From Nitrospirota bacterium (GTDB lineage: Bacteria; Nitrospirota; UBA9217), in the NCBI GenBank assembly GCA_029858565.1, contig JAOUEV010000070.1, positions 1 through 15,787 of the forward strand: 15,787 nucleotides of DNA. Reading direction: 5' to 3'. Below the pieces are notes generated by a model. It did no database searches. It saw only the letters and a program-made list of their open reading frames with translations, and was not told the DNA's origin. Positions within the stretch are counted from its first letter, which is position 1. Each line of letters begins with the position of its first letter. Positions 1 to 15,787 of this stretch are shown piece by piece. The position numbers and the translations under genes are program-made.

Positions 1-75
1 GGGAAGATCTTTGTGACCCCGGTGGACGAGGTCATCCGGATCAGGACGGGCGAACGGGGAGAATCGGCCATATAA
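1..75 (+). CDS. glnB: 3' end of nitrogen regulatory protein P-II (GlnB/GlnK family), partial
   Basis: Frame 1 reads GKIFVTPVDEVIRIRTGERGESAI*, the conserved P-II C-terminus. It lies directly upstream of glnA. glnB and glnK cannot be distinguished from this fragment. Confidence 0.9.
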   Translation, partial: GKIFVTPVDEVIRIRTGERGESAI

Positions 76-161
76 GAACAGAATACGGGGGCGAGAGGGA
101 ACGGGAAACCTTTTGCCTCCTGACTCTTGACTGCTAAATCTTCATTTGAGGAGGAAGCACC

Positions 162-1577
162 ATGGCGACACCGAAAGAAGTTATCAAGCTGGCAAAAGAG
201 AACAAAACGGCAATGGTGGACTTCAAGTTCATGGACTATCCGGGATTGTGGCAGCACTTCTCGGTCCCCGTGGACGAACTGACCGAAGGCATTTTCGAGG
301 AAGGACTGGGTTTTGACGGATCGAGCATCCGCGGCTGGCAGTCGATCCATACCTCGGACATGCTGGTGGTGCCGGATCCTGAGACCGCGGTGATGGACCC
401 CTTCACCCAGTATCCGACGCTGTCGCTCATCTGCAATATCGTGGACCCGATCACCAAGGAGCGCTATTCCCGCGACCCGCGGTACATCGCCCAGAAGGCC
501 GAGTCCTACCTTAAGTCCACGGGCATCGGCGACACCTGCTACATGGGTCCGGAGCCGGAATTCTTCATCTTTGACGACGTTCGCTTTGACCAGAACTCCC
601 ACGAAGGCTACTACCACATCGACAGCTCCGAAGGTATCTGGAACTCGGGCCGCGTTGAAAACCCGAACCTGGGCTACAAGCCCCGCCACAAGGAAGGTTA
701 TTTCCCGGTTCCCCCCATCGACTCGCAGGAGGACATCCGGAGCGAGATGGTGATGGAGATGCAGAAGGTCGGCATCTACGTCGAGCGGCAGCACCATGAA
801 GTGGCCACCGCGGGCCAGGCTGAGATTGATATCCGCTTCAACCCCCTGGTCAAGTGCGCGGATCAGGTCATGTATTTCAAGTACATCATCAAGAACGTTG
901 CAAAGCGCCACAACAAGACCGTGACCTTCATGCCCAAGCCGCTTTTCGGTGACAATGGCTCCGGTATGCACTGCCATCAGTCCATCTGGAAGGGCGGCAA
1001 GCCTCTGTTCCACGGTGACATGTACGCGGGCATGTCCCAGATGGCATTGTGGTACATCGGCGGCATCCTGAAGCACGCAAAGGTGATTGCGGCGTTCACG
1101 AACCCGACCATGAACTCGTACAAGCGTCTGACCCCGGGCTTCGAAGCGCCGGTGAACCTGGCGTATTCCAGCCGGAACCGCTCGGCATCCATCCGCATCC
1201 CCATGTACAGCGCCAATCCCAAAGCCAAGCGCGTCGAGGTTCGCTTCCCCGACCCGTCATGCAACCCGTACCTGGCGTTCGCTGCCATGCTGATGGCGGG
1301 CCTCGACGGCATCGAGAACAAGATCGATCCGGGCCAGCCGCTGGACAAGGACATCTACGACATGGCGCCCGAGGAGCTGGCGGGCGTGCCGTCCATGCCG
1401 GGCTCGCTCGAAGAGGCGCTGGACAACCTCGAAGCAGACCACGACTTCCTGATGAAGGGCGACGTGTTCACCAAGGACGCAATCGAGATGTGGATCCACT
1501 ACAAACGGACGAAGGAAGTGGACGCTCTCCGGCTGCGGCCTCATCCTTATGAGTTCTTCCTGTATTACGACATCTAG
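162..1577 (+). CDS. glnA: Glutamine synthetase type I (GSI-beta-like)
   Basis: 471 aa with motifs [54 protein letters not shown] and EVRFPD. Adenylylation-site-like DKDIYDM. SD GAGGAGG upstream. Confidence 0.98.
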
Positions 1578-1605
1578 ACTATCCACCCATAACCAGGTGA
1601 ATGCG

Positions 1606-1641
1606 ACCGGAATCCTCACGATGAGGGTTCCGGTTTTCTTT
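1606..1641 (+). terminator. Intrinsic terminator of glnB-glnA
   Basis: Hairpin ACCGGAATCCTCA-cga-TGAGGGTTCCGGT followed by TTTCTTT, about 30 nt after the glnA stop. Confidence 0.8.
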
Positions 1642-1686
1642 CGATGATAGCAGAGTTCCTCAAACCTGGCATAACTATCAATTATC

Positions 1687-1715
1687 TTGCCATTTATTTT
1701 TCATTATAGTATTCT
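1687..1715 (+). promoter_or_regulatory. Putative sigma70 promoter of the restriction-modification gene
   Basis: TTGCCA-17 bp-TATTCT in an AT-rich stretch, ending 43 nt before the ATG at 1759. Confidence 0.4.
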
Positions 1716-1758
1716 CATCCCATATTAGAAATGATACGAACGGGAACGAGGATGCACG

Positions 1759-4341
1759 ATGCCGATAAACTCGGACAAGACGCATTTGTGGAAAGCCGAT
1801 GTTGAAGAGTCAATCGATTTTTACAATGACTGGTTCCTCCGCTTCGCCCCAGGCACCTACCGCAAGCAGCGCGTCATCCGCACAAAAGAGGTCCTCACCG
1901 CATTTGATAAGACCGGCAACCTGCTTCAGATCACGCCTAACGTCCTGAAGGATAACCCTGGAATTTTACCTATTCTCCGCATGGCCACTACGCCGCCACT
2001 CGCCAGGGACCGAATCATCGGGCTCGCTCACCTTAATAAGGCAATGGTTGGCGCGATGGAAGGCAGCGAAGACAAGCCGCCGCGTCTGCCTGTTCGCATG
2101 GGGAAAACCGAACTCGAAGAGGGTTTGCAGCGAATTTGTGAGATCGTGACGGAGCTTGCAGACCGCGATCTGCTTCCCTGGCTTGCGCTGGGAGAAGAAC
2201 CGTCGGAAATCGAAAAAGATAGGGCAGCCACCGTCATAGCGGACCGTCTTTGCGGTGCGACAACGGACCCCATCATCAGAAATGCACAGGAGAAAAGACA
2301 GCTTGCCGCGCTCAAACGGTGGCTCGAACGCAACGGGTATGAACAGATCGAAACCGAGGACGTGCGGAACCTCGATGAGATGCCCCGCGGCACGTTTACC
2401 TTCCGTCTGAATGTGCCTGTTGGAAAGAAAAAGACCCCTGTCAATATACCCATCGATTGCGTTGTAAAGCCTCTCCATGCCGGCGAACGGGACCTTCCTA
2501 TTTTGATCGAGGCGAAGTCGGCGGGTGACGCGACGAACACCAACAAGCGACGAAAAGAAGAAGCTCAGAAGTTCACGCAGCTTAAAGAGCGCTATGGAAA
2601 GAACGTCGAGTTTGTTTTGCTTCTATGCGGTTACTTCGAGCCAGGCTATCTCGGGTACGAGGCGTCAGAGGGGATTGACTGGATTTGGGAGCATCGGCTG
2701 GATGATTTAAGAGCGCTTCTGATCAAGGTTAAAAAAAAAGCCCGCAGAATCGAAGAAGCCGTAGAACCTTATGAATTGCCGAAGCAGAGTATTACTGAAC
2801 AAGAACGGTTCAAGCTGCAAATATCCGTTGACGGAACGAAAACCCAGGAAGAAAGAAATATTCATGGCCAGTTTTCAACGCCTTATGTCCTGGCTCGCCA
2901 AATAGTAGCAAGATCGCTTGCGGAGCTGCCCTTATCGGAACCAGTCTCTTTTCTTGAGCCCGCCCTTGGCTCAGGGGTGTTTTATTCCGCCTTGATGCAG
3001 GAGATTGGGGACCATGCCATTCTGGAAGCTGTGGGTGTGGAGCAGGATGAGGCATATGCAAAGATAGCGTCTAAGCTTTTCAGTGACAAAGATTTCAACG
3101 TTATCATTCAGGATTTCTTCGTGTTTGCGCGCGCAGCTGAGAATAGCGCTCGCTTTAATCTGCTCTGTACAAACCCGCCCTATGTCAGGCATCATCACAT
3201 TGAATCATCACTAAAGCAGGAATTGCAGAGCCTCGTGCGAGATGCTCTCGGTCTGAAGATCAGCGGCCTTTCGGGATTATATATGTATTTCGTATTATTA
3301 TCGGATGCTCTTCTTGCACCTGGCGGCATTGCGTCCTGGCTCATCCCTTCAGAATTTCTCTATGTAAATTACGGCCAGCCCTTGCGGGATTACTTGAGCA
3401 AACAAGTAACCCTCTTAAGCATTCATCAATTCGATCCAGCTACTGTCCAGTTCGACGACGCGCTCGTCTCTTCCTGCGTCGTTACCTATAAGAAGACACG
3501 CCCGACTGGAAAAGCATCGTTTAGCTTCACTTTCGGCGGCAGCATAGTTCACCCCTCTGAAACGAGGACGGTAGATCTTTTCAACCGGGACAGTGCGCAG
3601 AAGTGGAGCTTGCTTCATTTTGACCAGGACGCGGTACTGCATGGCGAAAGGGATATTCTTTCCGATTTCTTTGACATCCGGCGCGGTGTTGCAACTGGTG
3701 CGAATGAATTTTTCATCATCAGTCCTGAAATTATAAGGGAATATTCGATACCGCGTAAATTCCTGAAGCCTATTCTTCCCAGTCCGCGTTATTTGACTCA
3801 GGACGTGATCGAAGCGAATTCCGACGGAACACCGAAGATTGAAAACATGAAATTCCTCTTGGACTGCAATCTCCCACCTGATGTTGTAAAAGAACGCTAT
3901 TCCGGTCTCTGGCAGTACTTCCAAACCGGCAAGAAACAAGGGCTGCATGAGCGGTACCTCTGCGCAAGCAAAGAAGTCTGGTATTTCCAGGAAAAGCGCG
4001 CCCCATCGCACTATATGGCAACGTACATGGGCCGATCAAATGGCAATGACCAGGCCCCGATCCGATTTTATCTCAATCACTCCCAGGCGATCGCTACAAA
4101 CGTTTTTCTGCATCTTTATCCGAAGTCGTCTATGATGAACTTACTCAAGGAGCATCCGGATCGAATGAAAGAGCTACTCGACCTAATGAATGCCATTCCA
4201 TTGCAGGAATTCATGCGCGTTGGTCGGGCATACGGCGGGGGCCTGCATAAAGTAGAGCCGGGGGAGTTAAAGAATCTTGCATTTGGTCACTTGCCGGAGT
4301 GGATGACGGGGATAACGGAGAAGCAAATGCAATTGATTTGA
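1759..4341 (+). CDS. Fused restriction-modification protein: N-terminal XamI-like PD-(D/E)xK endonuclease and C-terminal gamma-class N6-adenine DNA methyltransferase
   Basis: The first ~320 aa resemble XamI-family REases (WKADVEESIDFYNDWF; IDCV...IEAKSAGDATNTNKRRKEE; GIDWIWEH). The C-terminal part has GQFSTP, motif I FLEPALGSG and motif IV NPPY in gamma order. It is visibly more AT-rich than glnA. Confidence 0.85.
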   Translation: MPINSDKTHLWKADVEESIDFYNDWFLRFAPGTYRKQRVIRTKEVLTAFDKTGNLLQITPNVLKDNPGILPILRMATTPPLARDRIIGLAHLNKAMVGAMEGSEDKPPRLPVRMGKTELEEGLQRICEIVTELADRDLLPWLALGEEPSEIEKDRAATVIADRLCGATTDPIIRNAQEKRQLAALKRWLERNGYEQIETEDVRNLDEMPRGTFTFRLNVPVGKKKTPVNIPIDCVVKPLHAGERDLPILIEAKSAGDATNTNKRRKEEAQKFTQLKERYGKNVEFVLLLCGYFEPGYLGYEASEGIDWIWEHRLDDLRALLIKVKKKARRIEEAVEPYELPKQSITEQERFKLQISVDGTKTQEERNIHGQFSTPYVLARQIVARSLAELPLSEPVSFLEPALGSGVFYSALMQEIGDHAILEAVGVEQDEAYAKIASKLFSDKDFNVIIQDFFVFARAAENSARFNLLCTNPPYVRHHHIESSLKQELQSLVRDALGLKISGLSGLYMYFVLLSDALLAPGGIASWLIPSEFLYVNYGQPLRDYLSKQVTLLSIHQFDPATVQFDDALVSSCVVTYKKTRPTGKASFSFTFGGSIVHPSETRTVDLFNRDSAQKWSLLHFDQDAVLHGERDILSDFFDIRRGVATGANEFFIISPEIIREYSIPRKFLKPILPSPRYLTQDVIEANSDGTPKIENMKFLLDCNLPPDVVKERYSGLWQYFQTGKKQGLHERYLCASKEVWYFQEKRAPSHYMATYMGRSNGNDQAPIRFYLNHSQAIATNVFLHLYPKSSMMNLLKEHPDRMKELLDLMNAIPLQEFMRVGRAYGGGLHKVEPGELKNLAFGHLPEWMTGITEKQMQLI
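2731..2739 (+). repeat. A9 homopolymer at the endonuclease/methyltransferase junction
   Basis: GTT AAA AAA AAA GCC: nine A's, in frame as KKK, about 12 codons after the IWEH motif that ends the REase domain. Confidence 0.95.
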
Positions 4342-4422
4342 ACAGCAATAGTTGAGAAGTGACTCCGAGGTTTGCACAGATATCTTGAGCGATTCAATAT
4401 TCAGATATCCGACCAGGTGGGC

Positions 4423-4469
4423 AAAACAGAACCGGGGCTCTTCAAGAAGAGTGCCCCGGTTTTTTGTTT
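4423..4469. terminator. Likely bidirectional terminator between the convergent RM gene and higA
   Basis: AAAACAGAACCGGGGC-TCTTC-aa-GAAGA-gt-GCCCCGGTTTTTTGTTT: a long stem with A-rich and T-rich flanks. Confidence 0.75.
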
Positions 4470-4532
4470 CTCAATGTCAGCATCGTCATGCGATAAGAAA
4501 ATCTCCGGGACGTAGTGACCGAAATGGACTTT

Positions 4533-4841
4533 CTATGCCGCTTTTTCCCCCTGCAGCGGTTTAATCCCATCAATTGTCTTTTTTGATTTGACCATTGCCC
4601 AGTACAGATCGTAATCCGCCTGGAGGCCGAGCCAGACATCCGGCGTGGTCCCGAAATACCGGGACAGACGAAGCGCCATGTCCGGGCTTATACTCCGCCT
4701 CTCGTTCAGGATTTCGTTGATGGTCCGAAAGGAAGTCTTGAGCGCCTTCGCAAGCTCGGTCTGCGTGGTCCCGAGAGGTGACAGGAAATCTTCTTTCAAT
4801 ATTACGCCGGGATGCGTCGGGCGTCTCTTTACTTGAAGCAT
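4533..4841 (-). CDS. higA: HigA-family (XRE HTH) addiction-module antitoxin
   Basis: 102 aa with HPGVILKEDFL, INEILNERRSISPDMALRLSRYFGTTPDVWLGLQADYDL. SD AAGGAG at 4851-4856. Confidence 0.92.
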   Translation of the reverse strand: MLQVKRRPTHPGVILKEDFLSPLGTTQTELAKALKTSFRTINEILNERRSISPDMALRLSRYFGTTPDVWLGLQADYDLYWAMVKSKKTIDGIKPLQGEKAA

Positions 4842-4858
4842 CGTGATACTCTCCTTAA

Positions 4859-4918
4859 ATATGCTCCTTTGAAGCCGCCTTTCAGCGTTTCCAAACGATT
4901 GCCAGGCGGGGCCTCAAG
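4859..4918 (-). pseudogene. higB: 20-codon remnant of a HigB (RelE-superfamily) toxin gene
   Basis: The minus strand reads LEAPPGNRLETLKGGFKGAY, matching the HigB PPGNRLExLKG...G signature. It has no ATG and no C-terminal part, and sits immediately upstream of the higA SD. Confidence 0.75.
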
Positions 4919-4922
4919 CGAC

Positions 4923-4950
4923 AGTGTAACACATAGTGCTATAATCGCAA
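4923..4950 (-). promoter_or_regulatory. Putative higBA promoter with overlapping operator-like inverted repeat
   Basis: Minus strand TTGCGA-16 bp-TACACT. Imperfect inverted repeat TGTAACAC-ata-GTGCTATA (4925-4943, 6/8 match) overlaps the spacer and -10. Confidence 0.5.
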
Positions 4951-5010
4951 GAGCAATTTCAATAGGCGCTGTCGATGTGTATCACGATCAAGACGCGGGA
5001 GAATGGCAAC

Positions 5011-5040
5011 AAAAAGGAGCCCGGTTTCGGGCTCCTTTTT
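5011..5040 (-). terminator. Intrinsic terminator of the GSIII gene (symmetric)
   Basis: Perfect hairpin AAAAAGGAGCCCG-gttt-CGGGCTCCTTTTT, 26 nt past the GSIII stop. Confidence 0.9.
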
Positions 5041-5066
5041 ATTTCGCATCTTTTTGTTGAAGGCCT

Positions 5067-7154
5067 TTAGAGGTTGAACAGCATTTCCGCATAAGTCGGC
5101 AAAGGCCACTGGTCAGCGGAAACGATCTTTTCCAGGGCATCGCCGTCCGCCCGCAATGCGAGCATCCGGGCGAACACGTTCTTTCTGAAAGCAGCGGCTT
5201 GTTCAGCGACGTCAGAGATCTTCAGCGTGGCATCGAGGGTCTGCTCCAGCGCCTTGACGTTCTTGTTCATCGAGGACAGCGAATTGGAGATGTTTTCCAG
5301 CAGCTCTCTCTGGGCCGACACATCGAGCTTGTCGGATACGGCGGCGACTGCAGAAAGAGACTGGGCGACCTCTGCTGCAAAGGAAGCGGCAGCCGGCATG
5401 ATTTTGTGCTTGGCCATGTCGATCATGGTCCGGGCTTCTATGTTGAGCGTCTTGTTATACTGCTCGACCATGATGTCGTAGCGCGAATGCACTTCCTTTT
5501 CCGTAAAGACCTTGTGGGTAACGAACAGCTCGACCGCTTCCTTCGTTACCAGTTCCTTCAGCGCTTCAGGGGTGTTCGGGATGTTCTTCAGGCCGCGCTT
5601 CTCAGCTTCCTTGACCCATGCATCGGAATAGTTATTGCCGTTGAAGACGATGCGTTTGTGCTTCCTGGCGGTCTCCTGAAGGATCTTCTGCAGGTCGCCG
5701 GAGAAATCCTTCGACTTTTCCAGTTTGTCCGCGAACTGCTTCAGCGCATCAGCAATGATGGTGTTGATAACGACGTTCGGGCCCGCGATGGAGAAGGAGG
5801 ATCCGACCATGCGGAACTCGAACTTGTTGCCCGTAAAGGCAAAGGGAGATGTCCTGTTCCGGTCGGTCGTGTCCTTCGGTAGTGCGGGGAGCGTCGTCAC
5901 GCCGATCTGCATGTCCCCGCTCTTGGTGGAGGATTTTGCCCCGCCTTTTTCGATCTGGTCGACGATGTCGGCAAGTTGGTCGCCCAGGAATATGGAGATG
6001 ATGGCCGGAGGCGCCTCGTTCGCGCCAAGACGGTGGTCGTTGCCTGCATTGGCGCAGGACGCGCGCAGAAGACCGGCATGCTCGTCAACAGCCTTGATGA
6101 CGGCCATCAGGAAGGTCAGGAACTGAATATTATCGTGCGGGGTGTGGCCCGGCTCAAGCAGATTCTGTCCGTCGTTGGAGCTCATGGACCAGTTGTTGTG
6201 CTTGCCCGAGCCGTTCACGCCGGCAAAGGGTTTTTCATGGAGCAGGCAGACCATGTCATGCCTGATCGCGATGCGCTTCAGCACATCCATGATCATCTGA
6301 TTGTGGTCGGTCGCGATGTTGGTCGTTTCGAAGATCGGGGCGAGCTCGAACTGCCCGGGGGCGACCTCGTTGTGCTGGGTCTTTGCGGTAACGCCGAGCT
6401 TCCAAAGTTCGGTATTTACTTCCTTCATGTAGGAAATGACCCGTTCCTTGATGCTGCCGAAATAGTGGTCTTCCATTTCCTGCCCCTTGGGGGGCATGGC
6501 GCCGAACAGTGTCCTGCCGGCCATCAGCAGATCGAGCCGGTCGAGGAAGTAGGATTTGTCGATCAGGAAATATTCCTGCTCAGGACCGACGGTCGACGTT
6601 ACCCGTGTGGCGGTTGTGTTCCCGAAGAGTTTGAGTATTCTCGTTGCCTGGGTTGAAAGCGCCTCCATGGAGCGAAGCAGAGGGGTCTTCTTGTCCAGGG
6701 CCTCGCCGGTATAGGAACAGAAGGCGGTCGGGATGCAGAGGGTGATGACATCCGCTTCTTCCCTGAGGAATGCGGGAGACGTGCAGTCCCAGGCGGTATA
6801 GCCCCTTGCTTCGAAGGTGGACCTCAGACCGCCGCTCGGGAAGGAAGAAGCATCGGGCTCGCCCTTGATCAGTTCCTTGCCGGAAAATTCCATCAAAATG
6901 CCGTTGTCGGTCGGTGTGATGAAGGAGTCATGCTTTTCCGCGGTGACGCCGGTCATCGGCTGGAACCAATGGGTGAAATGTGTTGCGCCTCTTTCAATGG
7001 CCCAATCTCTCATGACGGTAGCAACCACATCGGCAATGGATGGGTCCAGCGGCAAACCTTCATCAATGGTTTTTTTCAGATTTTTGTAAACAGCCTTTGG
7101 CAGTTTCTCTCTCATTACATCTTGATTGAATACATTCTTGCCGAAAATCTCCAT
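5067..7154 (-). CDS. glnN: Glutamine synthetase type III
   Basis: 695 aa with GSIII motifs [80 protein letters not shown] and WPLPTY. Confidence 0.96.
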
Positions 7155-7210
7155 TTTGTTCTCGCTCCTTACTCATTGTGTTATTGCTTCAAAGACAACT
7201 TCCATATAAG

Positions 7211-7227
7211 AGCAAGATATGTGCCCA
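7211..7227 (-). promoter_or_regulatory. Sigma54 (-24/-12) promoter of glnN
   Basis: Minus strand TGGGCACATATCTTGCT gives GG-N10-GC with GGCAC and TTGC, about 57 nt upstream of the glnN ATG. Confidence 0.8.
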
Positions 7228-7355
7228 TTTTCTAAAAATGCATTGTGTAAGTGGAAGGTAAAGTTAACTTTTTGTATTATTAGACGTTTTTTTTTACTAA
7301 AACGAAAAAAATCAGCTGATCATGAGTGGAAAAAAGTCATATTTAAAATAAAAAG

Positions 7356-7391
7356 TGATAATAAAATAGGCACATGCTTAAAAAATAATCA
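7356..7391. promoter_or_regulatory. Two tandem NtrC-like enhancer sites for the glnN sigma54 promoter
   Basis: The 17-bp imperfect palindromes TGATAATAAAATAGGCA (7356-7372) and TGCTTAAAAAATAATCA (7375-7391) each approximate TGC-N11-GCA with an AT-rich core. They lie 130-165 bp upstream of the -24 box, across an AT-rich spacer. Confidence 0.5.
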
Positions 7392-7410
7392 AATGTTTTT
7401 CCCGAACAGG

Positions 7411-7476
7411 CTCGGAGAGGTGCTGGACAACCTCGAGGCAAATCACGACTTCCTGCTGAAGGGTGATGTGTTCACT
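7411..7476 (+). pseudogene. Diverged 66-bp duplicate of a glnA 3' segment (direct repeat of 1407-1472)
   Basis: 57/66 nt identical by manual alignment. It encodes LGEVLDNLEANHDFLLKGDVFT versus gln[23 protein letters not shown]. Confidence 0.9.
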
Positions 7477-7497
7477 GGTGCAGCGGGTATGAGCGTT

Positions 7498-7551
7498 CGG
7501 CTCGTGCGTATGGGAAGTGAGCTCGTGACATTTTGTCATGAGCTGACGTTA
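7498..7551 (+). pseudogene. Possible short remnant of a Bro-N/antirepressor-like gene, containing a 25-bp palindrome
   Basis: Reads RLVRMGSELVTFCHELTL, resembling the 'RLxxEGSExVTxCHxLK' segment I recall from Bro-N-domain proteins. Inverted repeat AGCTCGTGACA-ttt-TGTCATGAGCT at 7520-7544. Confidence 0.4.
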
Positions 7552-7563
7552 CTGAAATTCCGG

Positions 7564-7596
7564 AAAAAGGGTGGGGGCAAATTGCCACACCCCCTT
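7564..7596 (-). terminator. Putative terminator of hicBA
   Basis: Minus-strand imperfect hairpin GGGTGTGGCAA-t-TTGCCCCCACCC followed by TTTTT, about 70 nt past the hicA stop. Confidence 0.45.
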
Positions 7597-7668
7597 GATC
7601 GAACCGTCCGGAAAAATCGGACAACTGCAATTTGTTTCGACGACCATAGTGGGCAGACATGGAGAGTT

Positions 7669-7914
7669 TTATTCGCTGTAAAAATGTGGTTTCAGCTCTG
7701 TCTCGGGGATATACCGCGACGCTTGACGGAAAATGGCTTTGAGAGTTCCTTTATCCAATTCGGGATGGGCGGGAATTGTAAGAGGCTGTTTCGAACCATC
7801 CGGAAGACTACGAACAAGCTTGACATGGCTGCCCTTTTGACCTGCTATGACGAAGCCGAACAGCGCAAGTATTTTGATGACGTCTTGACCGGAGAGTCTT
7901 TTCAGCTTAGGCAT
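7669..7914 (-). CDS. hicA: HicA-family mRNA interferase toxin
   Basis: 81 aa with LSGQDVIKIL...GF...QKGSHVKL...TIPAH-ELDKGTLKAIFRQA; the catalytic GSH is intact. It overlaps the upstream hicB by 8 nt. Confidence 0.92.
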   Translation of the reverse strand: MPKLKRLSGQDVIKILALFGFVIAGQKGSHVKLVRSLPDGSKQPLTIPAHPELDKGTLKAIFRQASRYIPETELKPHFYSE

Positions 7915-8134
7915 GGACGAGGGTATCGATTTCGAGGTTGGCGATGATTGTCGGCTGTGGGACGAGGTCGTAATCAGTGAGGTTTTCTCCCTCTAAATGC
8001 AGTTCAACAGCTTCTCTGAGGTTTGCCACAACTTCATCCAGGGTTTTCCCCTGGGTAACGACGGGCAGGTCGATACATTCGGCAACGTAAAATTGTTCGC
8101 CTTTGTATATATGGACTTGAATGATTTTTTTCAT
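7907..8134 (-). CDS. hicB: Short HicB-family antitoxin (no C-terminal DNA-binding domain)
   Basis: 75 aa from ATG 8134 with YVAECIDLPVVTQGKTLDEVVANLREAVELHLE, the HicB-like partial RNase H fold signature. Gene order is hicB then hicA. Confidence 0.88.
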   Translation of the reverse strand: MKKIIQVHIYKGEQFYVAECIDLPVVTQGKTLDEVVANLREAVELHLEGENLTDYDLVPQPTIIANLEIDTLVHA

Positions 8135-8140
8135 GAACAA

Positions 8141-8169
8141 TTTATAGCAGTTATGCGGGGCAAAGTCAA
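8141..8169 (-). promoter_or_regulatory. Sigma70 promoter of hicBA, probably yielding a leaderless mRNA
   Basis: Minus strand TTGACT-17 bp-TATAAA. The hicB ATG begins 7 nt after the -10 box and no SD is visible. Confidence 0.7.
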
Positions 8170-8172
8170 TGC

Positions 8173-8200
8173 TCGAAAGGGCTGTATCGAAAGGGCTGTA
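8173..8200 (+). repeat. Perfect 14-bp tandem duplication (TCGAAAGGGCTGTA x2)
   Basis: 8173-8186 is identical to 8187-8200, in the hicB/cas1 divergent intergenic region. Confidence 0.95.
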
Positions 8201-8247
8201 GGTGTTAAACAGCCTGAACGGTTAATACGTTCCTGCGAGGTATCGTC

Positions 8248-9469
<1,222 letters not shown>

Positions 9470-9545
9470 GTGATATTACGGTGTTTTACTCGGTAGATTG
9501 TTGATCCTCGAAATTGTTCAATGATTTTGGGGAAGTAGAGGAAGT
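9470..9545 (+). promoter_or_regulatory. CRISPR leader
   Basis: 76-nt AT-rich stretch between cas2 and repeat 1. It contains GGTAGATTGT, as in E. coli-like I-E leaders, and a partial IHF-like TTCAATGATTTT. Confidence 0.75.
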
Positions 9546-10428
9546 ATGTTCCCCGCACGTGCGGGGATGAACCGGAGCTTACCCTGTCCGGAGCTGGAGG
9601 CGATGAATGTTCCCCGCACGTGCGGGGATGAACCGAGCCGCGTCCCCGACAGAGGACGATCCCGTGCATGTTCCCCGCACGTGCGGGGATGAACCGATCG
9701 TATAGGAATCGAAACGGTCTTCGTCCACATGTTCCCCGCACGTGCGGGGATGAACCGAACGAGTGCAGTCCGTTCACTATGTTCCGCTGATGTTCCCCGC
9801 ACGTGCGGGGATGAACCGAGAGCGCCCCTGATACAGCCTGCACTGCGTCGATGTTCCCCGCACGTGCGGGGATGAACCGGTGGACCGGCTGTTCCGAGAC
9901 GCTCAGGACGGATGTTCCCCGCACGTGCGGGGATGAACCGTTCGTCTGCGCGTACGTCGAGCCCGGCTTCGAATGTTCCCCGCACGTGCGGGGATGAACC
10001 GATACGCAGGTGCGTTGCCGTGCTGCGACGCATATGTTCCCCGCACGTGCGGGGATGAACCGAAAGATTTAATATCATTTGAATTAACTTCATTATGTTC
10101 CCCGCACGTGCGGGGATGAACCGATCCACCTCCTTCTTAGTATTCCGCAGGCCATATGTTCCCCGCACGTGCGGGGATGAACCGGTTTAATGGGTTCGCC
10201 CTCTCGGTCCAGGTGAATGTTCCCCGCACGTGCGGGGATGAACCGTCAAAAGTGCTTGACTTGCTTTATCGCTTTGAATGTTCCCCGCACGTGCGGGGAT
10301 GAACCGAACGAGTGCAGTCCGTTCACTATGTTCCGCTGATGTTCCCCGCACGTGCGGGGATGAACCGATCAAGGCGGATATCAAGGCCCGCGGACGGCTA
10401 TGTTCCCCGCACGTGCGGGGATGAACCG
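9546..10428 (+). CRISPR. Type I-E CRISPR array: 15 identical 29-bp repeats and 14 spacers of 32 bp
   Basis: The repeat ATGTTCCCCGCACGTGCGGGGATGAACCG occurs at a strict 61-bp period from 9546 to 10400. Spacers 4 and 13 are identical. Confidence 0.99.
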
Positions 10429-10532
10429 GCCGTAAAGTGACTGTTTTTCGCTGAGAGGGACTTATTCCTTCCGCCTGTCGCGTCCTTTTCCCGTTGACCC
10501 CGTCAGTTCCGCCCGGTTAGTATTCATTCATT

Positions 10533-12362
10533 ATGGTCCCTGTACGCATACAGACCAAATTCCTGGTCCTGGTCCTGGGTATCCTGATCGTCCTGCTGAG
10601 CATTTTCTCCGCGATCATCATCCGGCGCGAGAACGCGCTGCTGGCTCGCAAGAACATCGAGCAGGAGCATCTGCTCGCGACCATCCTTGTGGCGAGCCTG
10701 AAGGACGACATGCTTGCGGGCAGGGCGCGAAGCACGGTGAAGCTGATGGAGGGCATGCAGGGCACCTACGGCCTCATCCACCTCATGGTCCTCCGGGAGA
10801 ACGGGACCCCGGCCTTTGGCGCGCCGGGCGATGTTGTCACGCTTCCCGAAGCGCGCGAAGCCTTCCGCACCGGACGCATCATCGAGATCACCGGCGCCGA
10901 CCGGCACACGAACTTTTTTCCGCTCAAGAACGAAAGCGAGTGCCGGCGCTGTCATGCGAAAGCGGGGGATGTGCTCGGGGTGATCATGATCTCCCATTCG
11001 CTGGGGGATTCCTTCGCGGAACTGCGCACGAACAAGTACCAGCTCGTGCTCCTCTTCTCCCTCCTGATCGCGGTGATCGGCGTCGCGATCTACATTGCGG
11101 TGCAGCGGGTCGTGCTGCAGCCCCTGCGTCAGCTTCACACCGGGGCGGAGATCATCGGCAAGGGGGATTTTACCCGTCCCATAGTCATCGAAAGCCGCGA
11201 CGAGTTCCAGGACCTGGCCTCCACATTCAATGACATGGCGGGAATGCTGAAAGAAACCTACGCGGGCCTCGAGAACATGGTCAAGGTCCGGACCGCGGAA
11301 TTGAATGAGAGCGTGCGGCTCATGAGGGGAATCCTTACGAGCATGTCGAGCGGCGTGGCGCTGCTGACCTCGGAGGGGCTGGTAAAACTTATGAACCGGC
11401 AGGGCGCCTGGATCCTCGGCCGCGGACACGAGGACCTGGTGGGCCGTAAGCTTGCCGAAGTGGCGCCGGAGACGGCCGCATTCATGAAGGCCCGGGTGGG
11501 TTCGTACGAGGAGATCTCGGTCACGACTCCTGACCGGGTCACGGTCCCGATCGGATTCACCTCATCCTATTATACCGGCAGCGAAGGGGAGCAGGAAGGT
11601 CTGCTCATCGTGTTCCAGGACCTGACGGAACTGAAGATGCTCCAGTCCGCTTTGGTTGACCGCGAGCGGTTCGCGGCCATGGGCCGCGTGGTCGCGGGTG
11701 TCGCTCATGAGATCCGGAATCCCCTGTTCGGTATCAGCGCGATCGGCCAGATCCTGGAGCGGGACCTGCAAAGCCCGGAGCACCAGGAGCTGTCCCGCGC
11801 CCTCATTGCCGAGACGAAGCGCTTGAACCAGCTGGTCGAGGAACTGCTGATCTACGGCAGGCCCATGAAGCTGAAGCTCGAGGAGGCTGACCTCCGGGTG
11901 CTGTGGGAAGAGGTCCTGGACATGCACCGCGAGGAGCTCAAGAAAAAGAACATCACCATGACCGGCGACTACGCGGTGCGCCATCCCTACGCGCTCTTCG
12001 ATCCCCATCAGATCCGGCAGGTCTTTCTGAACCTGCTGCGCAATGCCATGGAGGCCACGCCCGATGGCGGCCTGATCGCGATCACCATGCTCCTGGAGGA
12101 CGACTTCATCCTCTTCCGCGTCACTGACACGGGCACGGGGATCCCGAAACAGCACCTGGACCACGTCTTCGACCTCTTCTTTACCACCAAACCCAAGGGC
12201 ACAGGTCTGGGTCTTGCCATCTGCCGCAAGATCATGCAGGACCACGGCGGGGACATCGCCATCGAGAGCGAGGCACGCAAGGGCACGACCGTGACCATCA
12301 AGCTGCCTTTCCGCATGGTCGCCTGGCCCGGTCCGCGATCGGCCTCCGGCCTCAAGGTTTGA
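10533..12362 (+). CDS. Membrane sensor histidine kinase (extracytoplasmic CxxCH domain, HAMP, PAS, HisKA, HATPase)
   Basis: 609 aa with two hydrophobic segments flanking CRRCH. HAMP DEFQDLASTFNDM, H-box AHEIRNPL, N-box NLLRNAMEA, DTGTGI, FFTTKPKGTGLGL. Confidence 0.93.
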   Translation: MVPVRIQTKFLVLVLGILIVLLSIFSAIIIRRENALLARKNIEQEHLLATILVASLKDDMLAGRARSTVKLMEGMQGTYGLIHLMVLRENGTPAFGAPGDVVTLPEAREAFRTGRIIEITGADRHTNFFPLKNESECRRCHAKAGDVLGVIMISHSLGDSFAELRTNKYQLVLLFSLLIAVIGVAIYIAVQRVVLQPLRQLHTGAEIIGKGDFTRPIVIESRDEFQDLASTFNDMAGMLKETYAGLENMVKVRTAELNESVRLMRGILTSMSSGVALLTSEGLVKLMNRQGAWILGRGHEDLVGRKLAEVAPETAAFMKARVGSYEEISVTTPDRVTVPIGFTSSYYTGSEGEQEGLLIVFQDLTELKMLQSALVDRERFAAMGRVVAGVAHEIRNPLFGISAIGQILERDLQSPEHQELSRALIAETKRLNQLVEELLIYGRPMKLKLEEADLRVLWEEVLDMHREELKKKNITMTGDYAVRHPYALFDPHQIRQVFLNLLRNAMEATPDGGLIAITMLLEDDFILFRVTDTGTGIPKQHLDHVFDLFFTTKPKGTGLGLAICRKIMQDHGGDIAIESEARKGTTVTIKLPFRMVAWPGPRSASGLKV

Positions 12363-12447
12363 CGATTTTTCTTGATTTTTTCGGTCAATCGGACAATAAT
12401 GCCCCGCTTGTCAAACAAGTTCCCCTAATTCCAAGGAGGTTTCTCTC

Positions 12448-13098
12448 ATGCGTATCATTCTGTTGGGCGCGCCGGGCGCGGGCAAAGGCACGGTGGCCAA
12501 GCTGTTGACTGCTTTGGACGGTTCGGTTCAGATCTCGACGGGCGATATCCTGCGCGGCGCGGTAAAGGCCGGCACGGCTTTGGGCAAGGAAGCAAAAGGC
12601 TACATGGACAGCGGCGGCTTGGTGCCCGATTCCCTGATCATGGGCATCATGGAGCAGCGGCTCCAGGAGAAGGACTGCCAGCAGGGCTTCCTGCTCGACG
12701 GGTTCCCGCGCACCATCCCCCAGGCCGACGAGCTGGGCACGCTGCTCACGAAGCTGAACATCAAGCTCGACCTCGTGGCGAACATCGATGTTCCCCGCGA
12801 CGTGATCCTGGACCGCCTGACCACGCGGCGCACCTGCTCCAACACCTCGTGCCAGGAGATCTACAACATAAAGAGCAATCCCCCGGCAGCCGGCGACAAG
12901 TGCAAGAAGTGCGGCAGCCCGACGATCCAGCGTGCCGACGAGACCGTGGAGGCCATCTCCAAGCGGCTCGACGTGTACAACGAGAAGACCGCGCCGCTGA
13001 TCGGCTACTATGACAAGAAGGGCCTGCTGCTCACGATCAAGGAAGCTTCGAGCGACGGTGTTGTGAACGCGATCAAGAACGGTATTGCGAAGAAGTAA
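12448..13098 (+). CDS. adk: Adenylate kinase with zinc-binding lid
   Basis: 216 aa with P-loop GAPGAGKGT, ISTGDILR, LLDGFPRT, and lid CSNTSC...CKKC. SD AAGGAGG. Confidence 0.97.
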   Translation: MRIILLGAPGAGKGTVAKLLTALDGSVQISTGDILRGAVKAGTALGKEAKGYMDSGGLVPDSLIMGIMEQRLQEKDCQQGFLLDGFPRTIPQADELGTLLTKLNIKLDLVANIDVPRDVILDRLTTRRTCSNTSCQEIYNIKSNPPAAGDKCKKCGSPTIQRADETVEAISKRLDVYNEKTAPLIGYYDKKGLLLTIKEASSDGVVNAIKNGIAKK

Positions 13099-13120
13099 GA
13101 ACACTGTTGGCAGGTAGTTC

Positions 13121-13174
13121 GTCATCCCTGTGAAGCTTGTCCTCGAATGATGTAATCGGGGCGCGGGGATCCAG
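13121..13174. repeat. REP-like palindromic element (GTCATCCC...GGGGATCCAG type)
   Basis: GTCATCCCTGTGAAG-CTTGTCCTCGA...TCGGGG-CGCGGGGATCCAG has nested stems. Its antisense translation WIPAPR...FTGMT is typical of this repeat class. Confidence 0.6.
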
Positions 13175-13186
13175 TGAACACCCACG

Positions 13187-13215
13187 GCGGGATGGAATTC
13201 CATCCCGCTTTTTTT
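13187..13215 (+). terminator. Intrinsic terminator of adk
   Basis: Perfect palindrome GCGGGATGGAATTCCATCCCGC followed by T7. Confidence 0.9.
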
Positions 13216-13230
13216 ACGCTGAGAATCCTT

Positions 13231-13259
13231 TTGACAGGATCCACCTATTCTGATATCCT
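13231..13259 (+). promoter_or_regulatory. Sigma70 promoter upstream of the Imm40-like gene
   Basis: TTGACA-17 bp-TATCCT with an extended TGn, just after the adk terminator. Confidence 0.6.
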
Positions 13260-13350
13260 CGCCGCATTGTTCGCCTTAAAAAATCGCTGACTTATAGAGT
13301 TGTTTTGCAAGAGCCGATGTTCTTGAAGATATTACATTGAGGGTATTCAA

Positions 13351-13689
13351 GTGAGTTGCAAAAGGGATTATGAGAAATTTGTAAAACATCATGGAATTAC
13401 CCTGCCTGAGGTCGCTGATATCGCTTTAATTCTTGAAGATGCGCTTGCCGCAATAAAGTTGGCAAGGGATGCCGGGATTCCGATTCTGGGCGGCGACGTC
13501 TATATGCGTCGGGGCGGCAGGATAACACTAGCTAATGCGAACTGGCATACTGATCCGCAACAAGGGGAGAGCTTAGAAGTATACGCACATCGCACGTGGG
13601 CAGAAAGTGATGCCTATCTGCGCCGGTACCCTAAAACCGCCGGTGCAGACTCACTCTTCGTGCTTGTCATCAGTGACTTGGTCTTATAA
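13351..13689 (+). CDS. Imm40-like polymorphic-toxin immunity protein (orphan)
   Basis: 112 aa, GTG start with GAGGG upstream. The motif pattern IPILGGDVY...NW...YL..Y...LFVLV resembles Imm40-family proteins. Confidence 0.65.
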   Translation: MSCKRDYEKFVKHHGITLPEVADIALILEDALAAIKLARDAGIPILGGDVYMRRGGRITLANANWHTDPQQGESLEVYAHRTWAESDAYLRRYPKTAGADSLFVLVISDLVL

Positions 13690-13878
13690 ATGTGGTTCTT
13701 AATGGCAGCCGGTAGGCCGTGCAGTTTTTTTGCCCAACATTTTTGTAGTTCTGTTAATGGAACATGTTGTGTTTCACATTGTTCAGTCAAGCCCACGAAT
13801 TGTTCCATTCCACCCATTTTGTTCCCAATATTGTTGTACGCTGGATAATCACTGACACTTTAATAACTACATTCATTA

Positions 13879-13908
13879 TTGCCTCCCGCCCGACCGGTCA
13901 ACTATAAT
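13879..13908 (+). promoter_or_regulatory. Sigma70 promoter of the fadL-like gene with palindrome in the spacer
   Basis: TTGCCT-18 bp-TATAAT. The spacer contains the palindrome GACCGGTC. SD GGAGGA precedes ATG 13944. Confidence 0.6.
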
Positions 13909-13943
13909 AGAACCAATCTCGCGAAAAGATCCGGGGAGGACCT

Positions 13944-15260
13944 ATGATTATAAGTGCGGAGTGTGGAGTGCGGAGTGCGGAATGTGCGGCAAAAACAAGG
14001 AACAGCAAATTAGCATGCATATCCTTGATGGTGATTGTCGTCGCAGTTCTTTGTGCTTCAACGAGTTTTGCAGCGGGATTCCGGCTTCCTGACCAGGATG
14101 CTGCTGCCATGGGTATGGCGGGCGCGTTCAGCGGCCAGGCGGACAATGCGTCAGCTGTCTGGTACAATCCTGCTGCCATGACCGGTCTTGATGGCACGAG
14201 TGTCTCTGCCGGGGTTGTCGCCATTTACCCGGTGCTTACTCATGAGAACAACACGGTCAATCCCGGAAGCACGGACGTGTCCGAGCGGAAGATCCATCTG
14301 CCTGCCAATTTCTACGCAACGCACAGGTTGAATGAACGCGCTGCCATCGGCATCGGCCTGAACAGCCCCTTCGGCCTTTCCACGAACTGGGATCCGAACA
14401 GCAGCAGCACAAGATACGTGACCACCTTCACCAAGGTCGTTTCCATGGAGGCGAATCCGAATGTGGCGTATAAGTTGAACGACAACACGTCATTGGCCTT
14501 TGGCCTTGCTTACGTGCAGCTTCGCGCCACCATGGAGAAGACCGTGAACGTAATACTTCCCGGGCCAACGCTGCTGGGGGATCATAATTTCCGCTTGAGC
14601 GGTGACGGCGAGGGGTGGGGATTCAATGCCGCGGTCATGCGGAAGTTTTCCGACAAGGTGAACGCAGGGCTTTCGTATCGCAGCAGGGTCAAGGTGGACC
14701 TGGAGGGCGACGCGTCCTTGACCGGCGGACCTGCTGCAACGGCAGGGACGGGGAAAACAACGATCACCCTTCCGGACCTTATCCAGCTTGGCGTTTCCTA
14801 TAAGGCCTCTGATCGCCTGACCGTGAACACTGATCTCGACTATACCCTGTGGTCGACCTACGACAGGATCGTGGTCACTTCGGACAATCTCTTGTTCAAC
14901 GCGACCGAGGAAAAGCAGTGGCATGATGTCTGGTGCCTCAGGATCGGGGGCCAGTATCTGCTGTCTGACCAGTGGAAACTGCGGGCAGGCTATGTTTATG
15001 ACAAGAGCCCCATCGGCAGTTCGCGCTTTGACACCAGCACCCCTGACGCGGACCGCCAGGGCATTACGATCGGGACGGGGTATGGAGCAGGCAATATGAC
15101 CGTTGACCTGGCCTACATGTACCTGCGGTTCAACAAACGGACCATTGACAGCAGTCTGGCGGACAATGATATAAATCCTCTGACACCCGACGATTCCCTG
15201 AACGGCGCCTATAAATCCATGGCGCATCTTGCAGCGATCACTATTGGGTATAAGTTCTAG
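13944..15260 (+). CDS. OmpP1/FadL/TodX-family outer-membrane transporter
   Basis: 438 aa with a signal peptide ending SFA-AGF, motifs ADNASAVWYNPAAM and SPFGLST-W, amphipathic beta strands and C-terminal GYKF. Confidence 0.93.
   Translation: MIISAECGVRSAECAAKTRNSKLACISLMVIVVAVLCASTSFAAGFRLPDQDAAAMGMAGAFSGQADNASAVWYNPAAMTGLDGTSVSAGVVAIYPVLTHENNTVNPGSTDVSERKIHLPANFYATHRLNERAAIGIGLNSPFGLSTNWDPNSSSTRYVTTFTKVVSMEANPNVAYKLNDNTSLAFGLAYVQLRATMEKTVNVILPGPTLLGDHNFRLSGDGEGWGFNAAVMRKFSDKVNAGLSYRSRVKVDLEGDASLTGGPAATAGTGKTTITLPDLIQLGVSYKASDRLTVNTDLDYTLWSTYDRIVVTSDNLLFNATEEKQWHDVWCLRIGGQYLLSDQWKLRAGYVYDKSPIGSSRFDTSTPDADRQGITIGTGYGAGNMTVDLAYMYLRFNKRTIDSSLADNDINPLTPDDSLNGAYKSMAHLAAITIGYKF
13953..13980 (+). 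repeat. Four tandem 7-bp units (AGTGYGG) in the 5' coding region of the FadL-like gene
   Basis: AGTGCGG AGTGTGG AGTGCGG AGTGCGG followed by a degenerate AATGTGCGG. Confidence 0.9.
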
Positions 15261-15286
15261 TGTTTTGCTGAAAAAGGCCCGGTATT

Positions 15287-15324
15287 GTCATTGCGAGAAG
15301 CGATCCCGTAGTATGGGATCGCTT
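15287..15324. other. Stem-loop after the FadL-like gene, preceded by a REP-like GTCATTGCGAG head
   Basis: AAGCGATCCC-gtagtat-GGGATCGCTT (15298-15324) with no strong U-tract. It may be a terminator, a stability element or a decayed REP. Confidence 0.45.
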
Positions 15325-15410
15325 GTAAAGAAACTGAAAATTATTGAAAAACCGCCTTTTTTTATTTGCCTCCGGCGGCCTGAGGTGCTAAACTTGGTTC
15401 GTAAGATACC

Positions 15411-15787
15411 ATGCCCTTTAATCTTTACGACAAGAAGATCCTCCTGACCGACGACTCGACCATCATGCGGATGGTCATCTCTCTTCATCTCAAACGATTC
15501 ACCGGAGCGCAGATCACCGAGGCCGTGAACGGACGGGAAGCGCTCGCCAAGCTCACCCAGGAACCCTTCGATCTCCTGATCACGGATATCAATATGCCGG
15601 AAATGAACGGCATCGAGCTGGTGCGGCATCTCCGGACCGGTCTGAACAATCCCATTCCCATCATCATCATCACCACCAAGGGCGAGGTCAAGGACCGGGA
15701 GCTCGGCATGCAGCTCGGCGCGAACCGCTACCTCACCAAACCGGTGGATCCCAAATCCCTCATCATGACCGTGCTGGACCTGCTCCC
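15411..15787 (+). CDS. Response-regulator receiver domain protein (CheY-like), truncated by window end
   Basis: Absent from the ORF track because it has no stop in the window. It reads MPFNLYDKKILLTDDS...DLLITDINMPEMNG...IIITT...YLTKPVD, with DD, the phospho-Asp, T and KP conserved. Confidence 0.92.
   Translation, partial: MPFNLYDKKILLTDDSTIMRMVISLHLKRFTGAQITEAVNGREALAKLTQEPFDLLITDINMPEMNGIELVRHLRTGLNNPIPIIIITTKGEVKDRELGMQLGANRYLTKPVDPKSLIMTVLDLL

Follow-up and report, generated by a model that had tools for sequence, protein, structure and literature searches.

A Conserved Adenine Run at the Nuclease–Methylase Joint of Fused XamI-Type Restriction-Modification Genes Suggests Deliberate Use of Copying Errors to Obtain Both Fusion and Free Endonuclease

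1. Introduction

What is a run of nine adenines doing exactly at the joint between a restriction endonuclease and the methylase to which it is fused? The question matters because restriction-modification (R-M) systems must stop the nuclease (R) from outrunning the methylase (M), and the solutions known to date are controller proteins, promoter timing, and translational coupling. The locus that raises it lies in a stretch of 15,787 nucleotides from a Nitrospirota bacterium of the lineage UBA9217 (assembly GCA_029858565.1, contig JAOUEV010000070.1, positions 1 to 15,787 of the forward strand), which was analyzed at its full length and which we refer to as the window. The gene in question occupies positions 1759..4341 of the window and encodes a XamI-family endonuclease and a methyltransferase in one chain. 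The conservation of its adenine run suggests that copying errors are used here on purpose, so that one gene supplies both the fusion and a free endonuclease. From the comparisons presented below, we give a little better than an even chance to the reading that the run is a programmed slippage site resembling that of dnaX, which would yield the R-M fusion together with free R or, where the DNA is in the other frame state, R together with the R-M fusion.

2. The Fusion and Its Two-Gene Relatives

The open reading frame (ORF) at 1759..4341 on the plus strand is uninterrupted and encodes 860 amino acids followed by a stop, comprising a XamI-family endonuclease, a linker, and an N6-adenine methyltransferase with a C-terminal recognition domain. 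An earlier note on this DNA, made from its letters alone, had placed endonuclease and methyltransferase in a single frame, with which the ORF, Pfam, and PADLOC all agree, and had located the A9 homopolymer within GTT AAA AAA AAA GCC, which is indeed the frame in which it is read at 2731..2739 (plus strand, codons 325–327).

Homologues were collected from proteins and from genomes. The protein search returned 4373 significant proteins among 8000 scored candidates, the best 120 of which were examined, and the genome scan, run with one genome per species, returned at least 584 relatives among 600 pattern matches, from which the best 80 loci were kept. The fused form dominates the protein matches: 119 of the best 120 are fused, measure 837–910 residues, combine PF09572, PF07669, and PF22837, and reach down to 52% identity. 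Among the best 80 genome loci, tblastn places R and M in one frame with no stop, as in the window, in 27, which come from Nitrospirota, Verrucomicrobiota, Kiritimatiellota, Lentisphaerota, Planctomycetota, Chloroflexota, Thermodesulfobacteriota, and one gammaproteobacterial symbiont; in four loci (L018, L019, L027, and L030) the junction is uncovered.

Loci L032–L080 are two-gene systems, of 42–48% identity and in many cases from cyanobacteria and Chloroflexota. Of the 45 with coverage of the junction, 44 have an R gene that stops exactly 12 codons after the E of an invariant EHR, a position that corresponds to codon 323 of the window gene, two codons 5' of the run, and that bears out the earlier note's placement of the run exactly at the R/M boundary. 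The M gene starts within a few bases of the R stop or overlaps it, and an A/T run of at least seven bases within 90 nucleotides of the junction was found in none of these 45. The protein collection gives the same picture, with stand-alone R proteins of 316–321 residues ending in FGL or similar and stand-alone M proteins starting 21–29 residues N-terminal to an RN..GQF motif. A quick maximum-likelihood tree, built from the M part of 71 of 81 rows, has a branch with 100% support in the Shimodaira–Hasegawa-like approximate likelihood ratio test (SH-aLRT) that parts 25 fused rows from 46 others; the tree omits L018, L019, L022, L025, L026, L027, L030, L045, L062, and L071, in which no single alignment piece extends over residues 350–800, and three of its rows counted as split (L035, L041, and L075) had no R part detected nearby. 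Judging from these alignments, we take the two-gene system to be the ancestral arrangement and the run to sit at the old gene border. One two-gene locus departs from the compact layout: in L070 (Rivularia, 3799–7501) an insertion of about 1.6 kb separates the R part, which extends to 4368, from the M part, which starts at 6011, and the R reading frame continues beyond the usual stop.

A homopolymer miscall that joined two separate genes during sequencing or assembly would also produce a single frame, homopolymers being error-prone in some sequencing chemistries, and the protein database does hold a 448-residue piece of the window protein instead of the 860-residue ORF: this piece, P0242, is 100% identical to window residues 413–860, and neither the full ORF nor the R piece of the window protein is among the database matches listed. 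Yet the same in-frame fusion recurs in 119 of 120 top matches and in 27 independent genome loci, and the linker 3' of the run, which the two-gene relatives lack, is conserved in the zero frame, with E333 in 113 of 120 proteins and Y338 in 106 of 120. We conclude that the fused frame is translated and selectively maintained, and the homopolymer error that the earlier note had set against its own proposal is excluded, apart from a residual chance so small that we give it almost no weight.

3. Conservation of the Run as DNA

A run of at least seven adenines stands at the same spot of the junction in 20 of the 28 fused sequences (the window and the 27 loci). It measures nine bases in ten of them (the window, L001, L003, L010, L011, L014, L021, L023, L025, and L031), ten in seven (L002, L006, L007, L015, L017, L024, and L026), eight in two (L009 and L016), and seven in one (L004), so that 17 of the 20 fall at 9–10. 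Such runs are otherwise scarce, since the 710,675 bases of the window and the 80 loci contain 21 A/T runs of nine or more, 17 of which are the junction site. A second run, of eight adenines, occurs in L017 (5019) and L002 (5076), 40–100 nucleotides 3' of the junction run, in the linker or at the start of the methylase.

The simplest account of a run of AAA codons is that the protein needs lysines there, for instance as a basic patch in the linker that touches DNA, with the adenine run as an incidental consequence; in its favor, KKK lies within 28 residues after WEHR in 80 of the 119 fused database proteins (8 more have KK), and the linker has other residues conserved in the zero frame, E333 and Y338. 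The codons speak against it. All 56 junction lysine codons of the 20 run-bearing genes are AAA, whereas elsewhere in the same genes AAA and AAG are used 336 and 472 times (42% AAA), and in 13 other conserved lysine columns 93 and 151 times. The 472 AAG codons also argue against a lack of AAG-reading transfer RNA in these organisms. Synonymous sites, moreover, are saturated: four-fold third-position identity is 0.19–0.45 between the window and the other run-bearing genes and lies below 0.45 in 179 of 190 pairs. When pairs at or above 0.45 are merged, 15 lineages remain, and the probability that all 41 junction codons would be AAA, taking one locus per lineage, is 10^-15.8 (10^-22.6 with all loci).

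The register of the run points the same way. It starts at codon position 1 in 15 loci, at position 3 in four, and at position 2 in one, and the residues read from it and its flanks differ accordingly (VKKKA, DRKKV, NIKKI, SKKN, AQKKSP, TKKKSP, and others), so that the run persists where the residues are RKK, IKK, KKN, or QKKS; it persists as well, judging from protein tails, in alleles that stop a few codons later. Since the junction codons are all AAA, synonymous sites are saturated, and three registers with differing residues occur, we conclude from the alignments that the run is constrained at the nucleotide level and not as lysines; the lysine patch is close to refuted by the codon data and in our estimate very improbable. 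The earlier note had proposed looking among homologues for a conserved run, and it is indeed kept as nucleotides, in 20 of 28 fused loci and across 15 saturated lineages.

Run-bearing rows are spread across the whole fused clade of the quick M-part tree, including its deep branches, and the run was probably ancestral to the clade and lost several times. The four bases 3' of the run (2740–2743 in the window) are G, C/T, C, and C in 14–15 of 20 loci, coding for Ala-x or Ser-Pro, and a T stands directly 5' of it in 12 of 20; other flanking positions vary. A context effect of these flanking bases on slippage is possible.

4. Products of a Slip

In the window, loss of one A (or a +1 shift) leads to a TAG at 2762..2764 (plus strand) and a product of 334 residues, and gain of one A (or a −1 shift) to a TGA at 2772..2774 (plus strand) and a product of 338 residues, matching the earlier note both in the positions of the two stops and in its estimate of a free endonuclease of about 335 residues. 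A slip in any of the 18 run-bearing genes available at full length would likewise give 329–356 residues, comprising the whole nuclease domain with a short tail. After loss of one A the stop follows 2–29 codons 3' of the run, which is early by comparison with the rest of these genes (mean percentile 0.26; Wilcoxon p 1.5e-4, uncorrected for phylogeny).

The methylase half offers no evident start of its own. The earlier note had found no in-frame ATG before motif I, and none lies between the run and that motif; the TTG that it had singled out at 2776 is in frame (2776–2778, L340) and has no purine run resembling a Shine–Dalgarno (SD) sequence by eye. We also considered an internal start that would release a free methylase, and this is unsupported, with no ATG from run to motif I in the window and, by eye, no conserved start in the aligned junctions.

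5. Out-of-Frame Alleles

Alleles whose DNA appears to be out of frame at the joint also occur; they are known from proteins, their run lengths being inferred from protein tails. A search of shorter proteins with an R part gave 12 R-only clusters (P0123, P0125, P0128, P0129, P0131–P0134, P0136, and P0138–P0140) of 329–377 residues, which hold the whole nuclease domain and end 1–13 residues after KKK (KK in one), and a thirteenth, P0130, with the same end region and no KKK. Several KKK clusters come from contigs of 235 kb, 48 kb, and 12 kb and P0130 from one of 98 kb, so that truncation at a contig end does not explain their shortness. Over the R part, the R-only clusters share 66–88% identity with the closest fused relatives. 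In a FastTree phylogeny of R parts (120 fused, 13 R-only, and 20 two-gene), R-only forms appear in at least six places, and one clade with support 0.98 unites eight R-only clusters with a single fused one (P0117); these eight are 63–88% identical to one another, keep KKK in every case (8/8), and in four cases stop five residues after it, the position at which L026 would stop with one A fewer.

The complementary half was sought with a shortened M query, the 860-residue forms being excluded by length. It turned up M-only ORFs that belong to the fused clade. One, P0119, begins 14 residues past the position of the run, and another, P0244, for which 18 contigs are listed, starts in the linker. Six R-only clusters match an M-only ORF in source and in the size of the longest contig; in four of these six pairs the M ORF as called opens with an internal Met, so that the N-terminal region, invariant in all 120 fused homologues, is missing in whole or in part, and in the other two the ORF starts inside the linker. 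Out-of-frame alleles that carry the run thus persist, and the site seems, from these proteins, to work in both frame configurations. The suggestion in the earlier note of a suicide switch finds no support here, the R-only state being evidently viable on contigs of up to 235 kb.

A second suggestion of that note, phase variation, deserves fuller consideration. In this explanation, replication slippage would switch the DNA between A9 (fusion, ON) and A8 or A10 (R alone, M off), and heritable switching would itself be the selected function. Both frame states are present in public data, as the 12 R-only clusters and the M-only P0119 and P0244 attest, and the frame state changed at least six times on the R tree; furthermore, homopolymer tracts in R-M genes are a known device (Antonov 2013, PMC3711429; Bhatti and Saikrishnan 2026 preprint), and runs of this kind are hypermutable in replication too (Baranov 2005, PMC1088944). 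However, 17 of 20 runs keep narrowly to 9–10 bases, and not one of the 20 run-bearing genome loci is out of frame, a count taken from the best 80 of at least 584 loci that may under-sample split alleles. Against 12 R-only clusters there are at least 88 fused clusters with KKK or KK, and the R-only alleles keep KKK and intact ORFs across 63–88% identity, which describes stable rather than flickering states. Finally, the OFF state would leave an intact endonuclease with no methylase, which should be lethal and is no useful phase. DNA-level switching clearly happens on an evolutionary time scale, but as a selected function it fits less well, because the length is narrow, the loci are uniformly in frame, and OFF leaves the nuclease unaccompanied; we regard it as unlikely.

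6. Proposed Mechanism and Its Weight

We propose that the fusion arose from a two-gene XamI-type system by loss of the R stop and gain of a linker of about 26 residues, and that the A9 run in this linker would be a selected recoding signal. RNA polymerase would most likely add or drop an A in a fraction of transcripts, and ribosome slippage on the same run may contribute. The unslipped message would give the 860-residue R-M fusion; on a slipped message translation would stop after a further 8–11 codons, yielding free endonuclease of 334 or 338 residues, in essence the stand-alone R of two-gene relatives with a short tail. In related alleles whose DNA run is one base off, R alone would be the default product and slippage would make the R-M fusion. 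As to purpose we can only speculate that the ratio of free R to M-bearing protein might be fixed in this way with no need of a controller protein. From the sequence comparison we infer that slippage takes place in these organisms, that it is mainly transcriptional, and that both products are made and used.

A broader proposal can be formulated for the family as a whole, namely a recoding switch in which a single A9/A10 tract at the R|M joint yields free R and the fusion in either DNA frame, the methylase is always reached by way of R, and the ratio is set by polymerase slippage instead of by a controller or by separate promoters; to this we would give somewhat less than an even chance. Published measurements set the scale of what a run of this length may do. 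Frameshifting in Escherichia coli reporters amounted to 63%, 40%, and 10% for 11, 9, and 7 As, respectively (Antonov 2013, PMC3711429), and selection against runs is evident from nine bases upward in many genomes (Baranov 2005, PMC1088944). The 9–10 bases of 17 of the 20 junction runs thus fall in the range for which both this selection and efficient slippage have been reported (Baranov 2005, PMC1088944).

Several observations weigh against a slippage function. Eight of the 28 fused loci (L005, L008, L012, L013, L020, L022, L028, and L029) have no run, and 31 of the 119 fused database proteins have neither KKK nor KK, so that the fusion evidently works in its absence. The run-bearing loci are not fully independent, as five form one close group, and the pairing of R-only with M-only ORFs is a guess that rests on equal contig sizes and not on DNA. 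For the E. coli RNA polymerase, slippage has been reported to be better on runs of T than on runs of A and to require more than seven As (Koscielniak 2018, PMC6260861). The idea, put forward in the earlier note, that nearby out-of-frame stops would be conserved at the junction holds for one direction of slippage: the stop reached by losing an A is early (0.26), but that reached by gaining one, 2–39 codons 3' of the run, lies where background would put it (percentile 0.45, p 0.095). Lastly, an X_XXY_YYZ heptamer (A_AAA_AAN) is in register in 20 of 20 run-bearing loci, which is compatible with ribosomal −1 shifting.

This last point is the core of a purely translational explanation, according to which the ribosome would pause, slide, or shift to −1 on the AAA run and so pace or attenuate translation from R to M, or make free R, with no polymerase slippage at all. 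Iterated AAA, in contrast to AAG, is known to lower output and to let ribosomes slide (Koutmou 2015, PMC4363877; Arthur 2015, PMC4552401), and the same explanation would also account for the exclusive use of AAA at the joint. What it leaves unaccounted for is length, since a heptamer suffices for a −1 shift and yet 17 of 20 runs are 9–10 long. Folding of the 60 nucleotides after the run at 20 loci revealed no conserved downstream RNA structure (mean z +0.17, range −2.22 to +1.96), a result that speaks against −1 frameshifting of the classical stimulated kind. Only 10 of 20 loci have an SD-like 4-mer in the 18 nucleotides upstream of the run, and the −1-frame stop is no nearer than background. 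We consider a purely translational origin improbable, a little more so than phase variation. Polymerase slippage is favored, though not proven, because 9–10 bases are kept where a heptamer would be enough for the ribosome and because no downstream stimulator is present.

7. Relation to Known Systems

The closest parallel to a slippage site at the R|M joint is the dnaX gene of Thermus thermophilus, in which the long product is encoded in one ORF containing a 9-base run, each of the other two frames has its stop, and the products are made at about 1:1 (Atkins 2016, PMC5009743; Baranov 2005, PMC1088944). The tau/gamma arrangement shares with the present gene a one-ORF long product, an A9 on the coding strand, stops in the two shifted frames, and a shorter product that has, or here would have, the same N-terminus. 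Relatives of dnaX in which the halves lie in different frames and are joined at an A10 have also been described (Antonov 2013, PMC3711429), and these split-frame forms match the R-only alleles of the XamI family. The differences are that gene family and function are other than those of dnaX, that the cut here falls exactly between two enzymes of opposing activity, a nuclease and its protective methylase, and that slippage is demonstrated for dnaX whereas here it is predicted from sequence, with a run that is not universal in the clade (20/28). The R-only alleles probably follow the logic of Shigella mxiE and of insertion sequence (IS) transposases, in which two ORFs are joined by RNA polymerase slippage on a 9-base run (PMC1088944); in the window gene, by contrast, the fusion would be made by default and a slip would be required for the short product.

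Among R-M systems, the two-gene members of the XamI family (R of about 320 residues, followed by an Eco57I-type M of about 505–530) are the nearest relatives, with homologous full-length R and M (42–48%) in the same order and with the catalytic motifs kept; they differ in that R stops after FGL, M has its own ATG, and linker and A-run are absent (0/45). Phase-variable R-M systems, which include Type III mod, Type I hsdS, and the Type IIG enzymes of Helicobacter, Campylobacter, and Mycoplasma, resemble the present family in having a slippery tract in an R-M coding region and natural changes of frame. Tract length in those genes is usually very variable, and it is the entire enzyme or its specificity that is switched, whereas the tract described here keeps to 9–10 bases, sits at the R|M joint, and on shifting removes the methylase only, and its bearers belong to environmental phyla instead of host-adapted pathogens. 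According to the 2026 preprint, "OFF" frames of a mod gene still yield some product through frameshift suppression. The Type IIG/IIC enzymes of the Eco57I/MmeI kind likewise combine, in a single chain, an N-terminal nuclease, a gamma-type N6-adenine methyltransferase, and a recognition domain, but the nuclease of the present fusion is a complete XamI-type, Type IIP-like enzyme that is free-standing in relatives.

8. Domain Anatomy and Genomic Neighborhood

The endonuclease domain comprises residues 3–319 (1765..2715, plus strand), where PADLOC REase_II matches with E 2.4e-104 and 347 bits over model positions 2–312 of 315, and Pfam RE_XamI (PF09572) covers residues 54–310 with 323.6 bits against a cut-off of 25 (profile positions 2–256 of 256). 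D233, E251, and K253 are invariant across an alignment of 53 homologues and are thus the candidate PD-(D/E)XK triad, D233 at 2455–2457 and E251-A-K253 at 2509–2517 on the plus strand; their role as the catalytic triad is our reading, and XamI is listed among PD-(D/E)XK families (PMC3424549). The linker of 26 residues (320–345; 2716..2793, plus strand), present in the fused clade only, holds the run, E333, and Y338. It is followed by the methyltransferase and recognition domain at residues 346–840 (2794..4278, plus strand; PADLOC MTase_II, E 8.7e-122, 405 bits), within which the Pfam Eco57I methylase (PF07669) matches residues 450–561 with 49.2 bits against a cut-off of 25.3. Motif I lies at about residues 400–408, with E400, P401, G406, and F408 invariant in the 53 homologues, and is followed by NPPY at residues 472–475 (3172–3183), in which N472, P473, P474, and Y475 are invariant as well. 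The C-terminal recognition domain, PF22837, is taken from precomputed annotation on homologues. Sequence matches in the PDB are restricted to the methylase part (7lni/8cxz and 7qw5), and NCBIfam models gave matches to the methylase only, all far below their cut-offs. Both halves look active by these motifs.

As to class, the sequence evidence assigns the enzyme to the single-chain Type II (Type IIC) R-M systems, with nuclease and methylase in one polypeptide, because there is one ORF, 119 of 120 matches are fused, and the linker is conserved in the zero frame. Membership in Type IIG of the Eco57I/MmeI kind was considered and rejected, since the REase_MTase_IIG models match only residues 465–656, within the methylase core, with at most 53 bits, against 347 and 405 bits for the separate REase_II and MTase_II models. 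Within the fused clade, eight proteins (P0250, P0251, P0252, P0255, P0260, P0267, P0272, and P0283) have the first 15–100 residues of R joined directly to the methylase. It looks as if most of the nuclease had been lost in frame repeatedly and independently while the methylase stayed under its original start, a hint that in the fusion the nuclease domain is both active and costly.

XamI recognizes GTCGAC. The earlier note had counted at least three such sites, and the window contains exactly three, at 5958, 6592, and 14852; compared with a shuffle mean of 4.5, and with three or more sites in 163 of 200 shuffles, there is no signal of GTCGAC avoidance in the window.

Upstream of the gene, a weak sigma-70-like promoter match (9 of 12) lies at 1687..1715 on the plus strand, a consensus match only, in a region with 5 matches against 3.0 expected. 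Downstream, a terminator-like G+C-rich inverted repeat followed by T6 was read from the sequence at 4432..4465 (plus strand) and does not appear in the motif-scan list. Rfam returned 0 matches over the whole window. The R-M gene sits between a type I glutamine synthetase gene (162–1577) and a type III glutamine synthetase gene (5067–7154, minus strand), which suggests that it was inserted into a housekeeping neighborhood. A small HTH_3 gene (4536–4841, minus strand) adjoins it; its candidacy as the controller protein of the system was rejected, a relative being found in one of the 80 loci (weak) and not beside the R-M gene.

Elsewhere in the window, a second 9-base homopolymer, T9 on the plus strand at 7287–7295, lies in a very AT-rich region (7150–7400) just upstream of cas1; it falls inside a listed ORF (7219–7947) that has no Pfam or PADLOC match, and the region is probably non-coding and leader-like. 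Positions 8248–10430 hold Cas1 (subtype I-E, PADLOC Cas1e, E 2.7e-121) and Cas2 (Cas_Cas2CT1978), followed by an array of clustered regularly interspaced short palindromic repeats (CRISPR) with a 29-nucleotide repeat, a spacing of 61 nucleotides, and 15 repeat copies from 9546 to about 10429. The repeat has no Rfam match, two spacers are identical (about 9758–9789 and about 10307–10338), and no effector cas genes were found in the window.

9. Novelty and Significance

Programmed slippage is known, as are fused and phase-variable R-M genes, each on its own. Full-text literature searches found no report of a conserved slippery run at the R|M joint of a XamI-type fusion clade, and a term search did not find the site in the first 300,000 characters of Atkins 2016 (PMC5009743) or in the text of Antonov 2013 (PMC3711429), whose supplementary tables lay outside the search and may list related clusters. 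Should the proposed switch be true, the family would provide the first described example of a conserved programmed-slippage site in an R-M system, a dnaX-like case extending over at least six phyla, and it would add a cellular case, unconnected with mobile elements, to the short list of conserved programmed slippage sites.

There are also practical consequences. Slippage that gives a shorter product is hard to recognize and was left out of a genome-wide survey (Baranov 2005, PMC1088944), and cases of this kind can be found through codon-level conservation, as the present family illustrates. Annotation pipelines and defense-system finders, for their part, will call the out-of-frame alleles an orphan nuclease and a truncated methylase. 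For the biology of these systems, obtaining fusion and free nuclease from a single message by means of a slippery run would offer one more way, and a very compact one, of restraining the nuclease.

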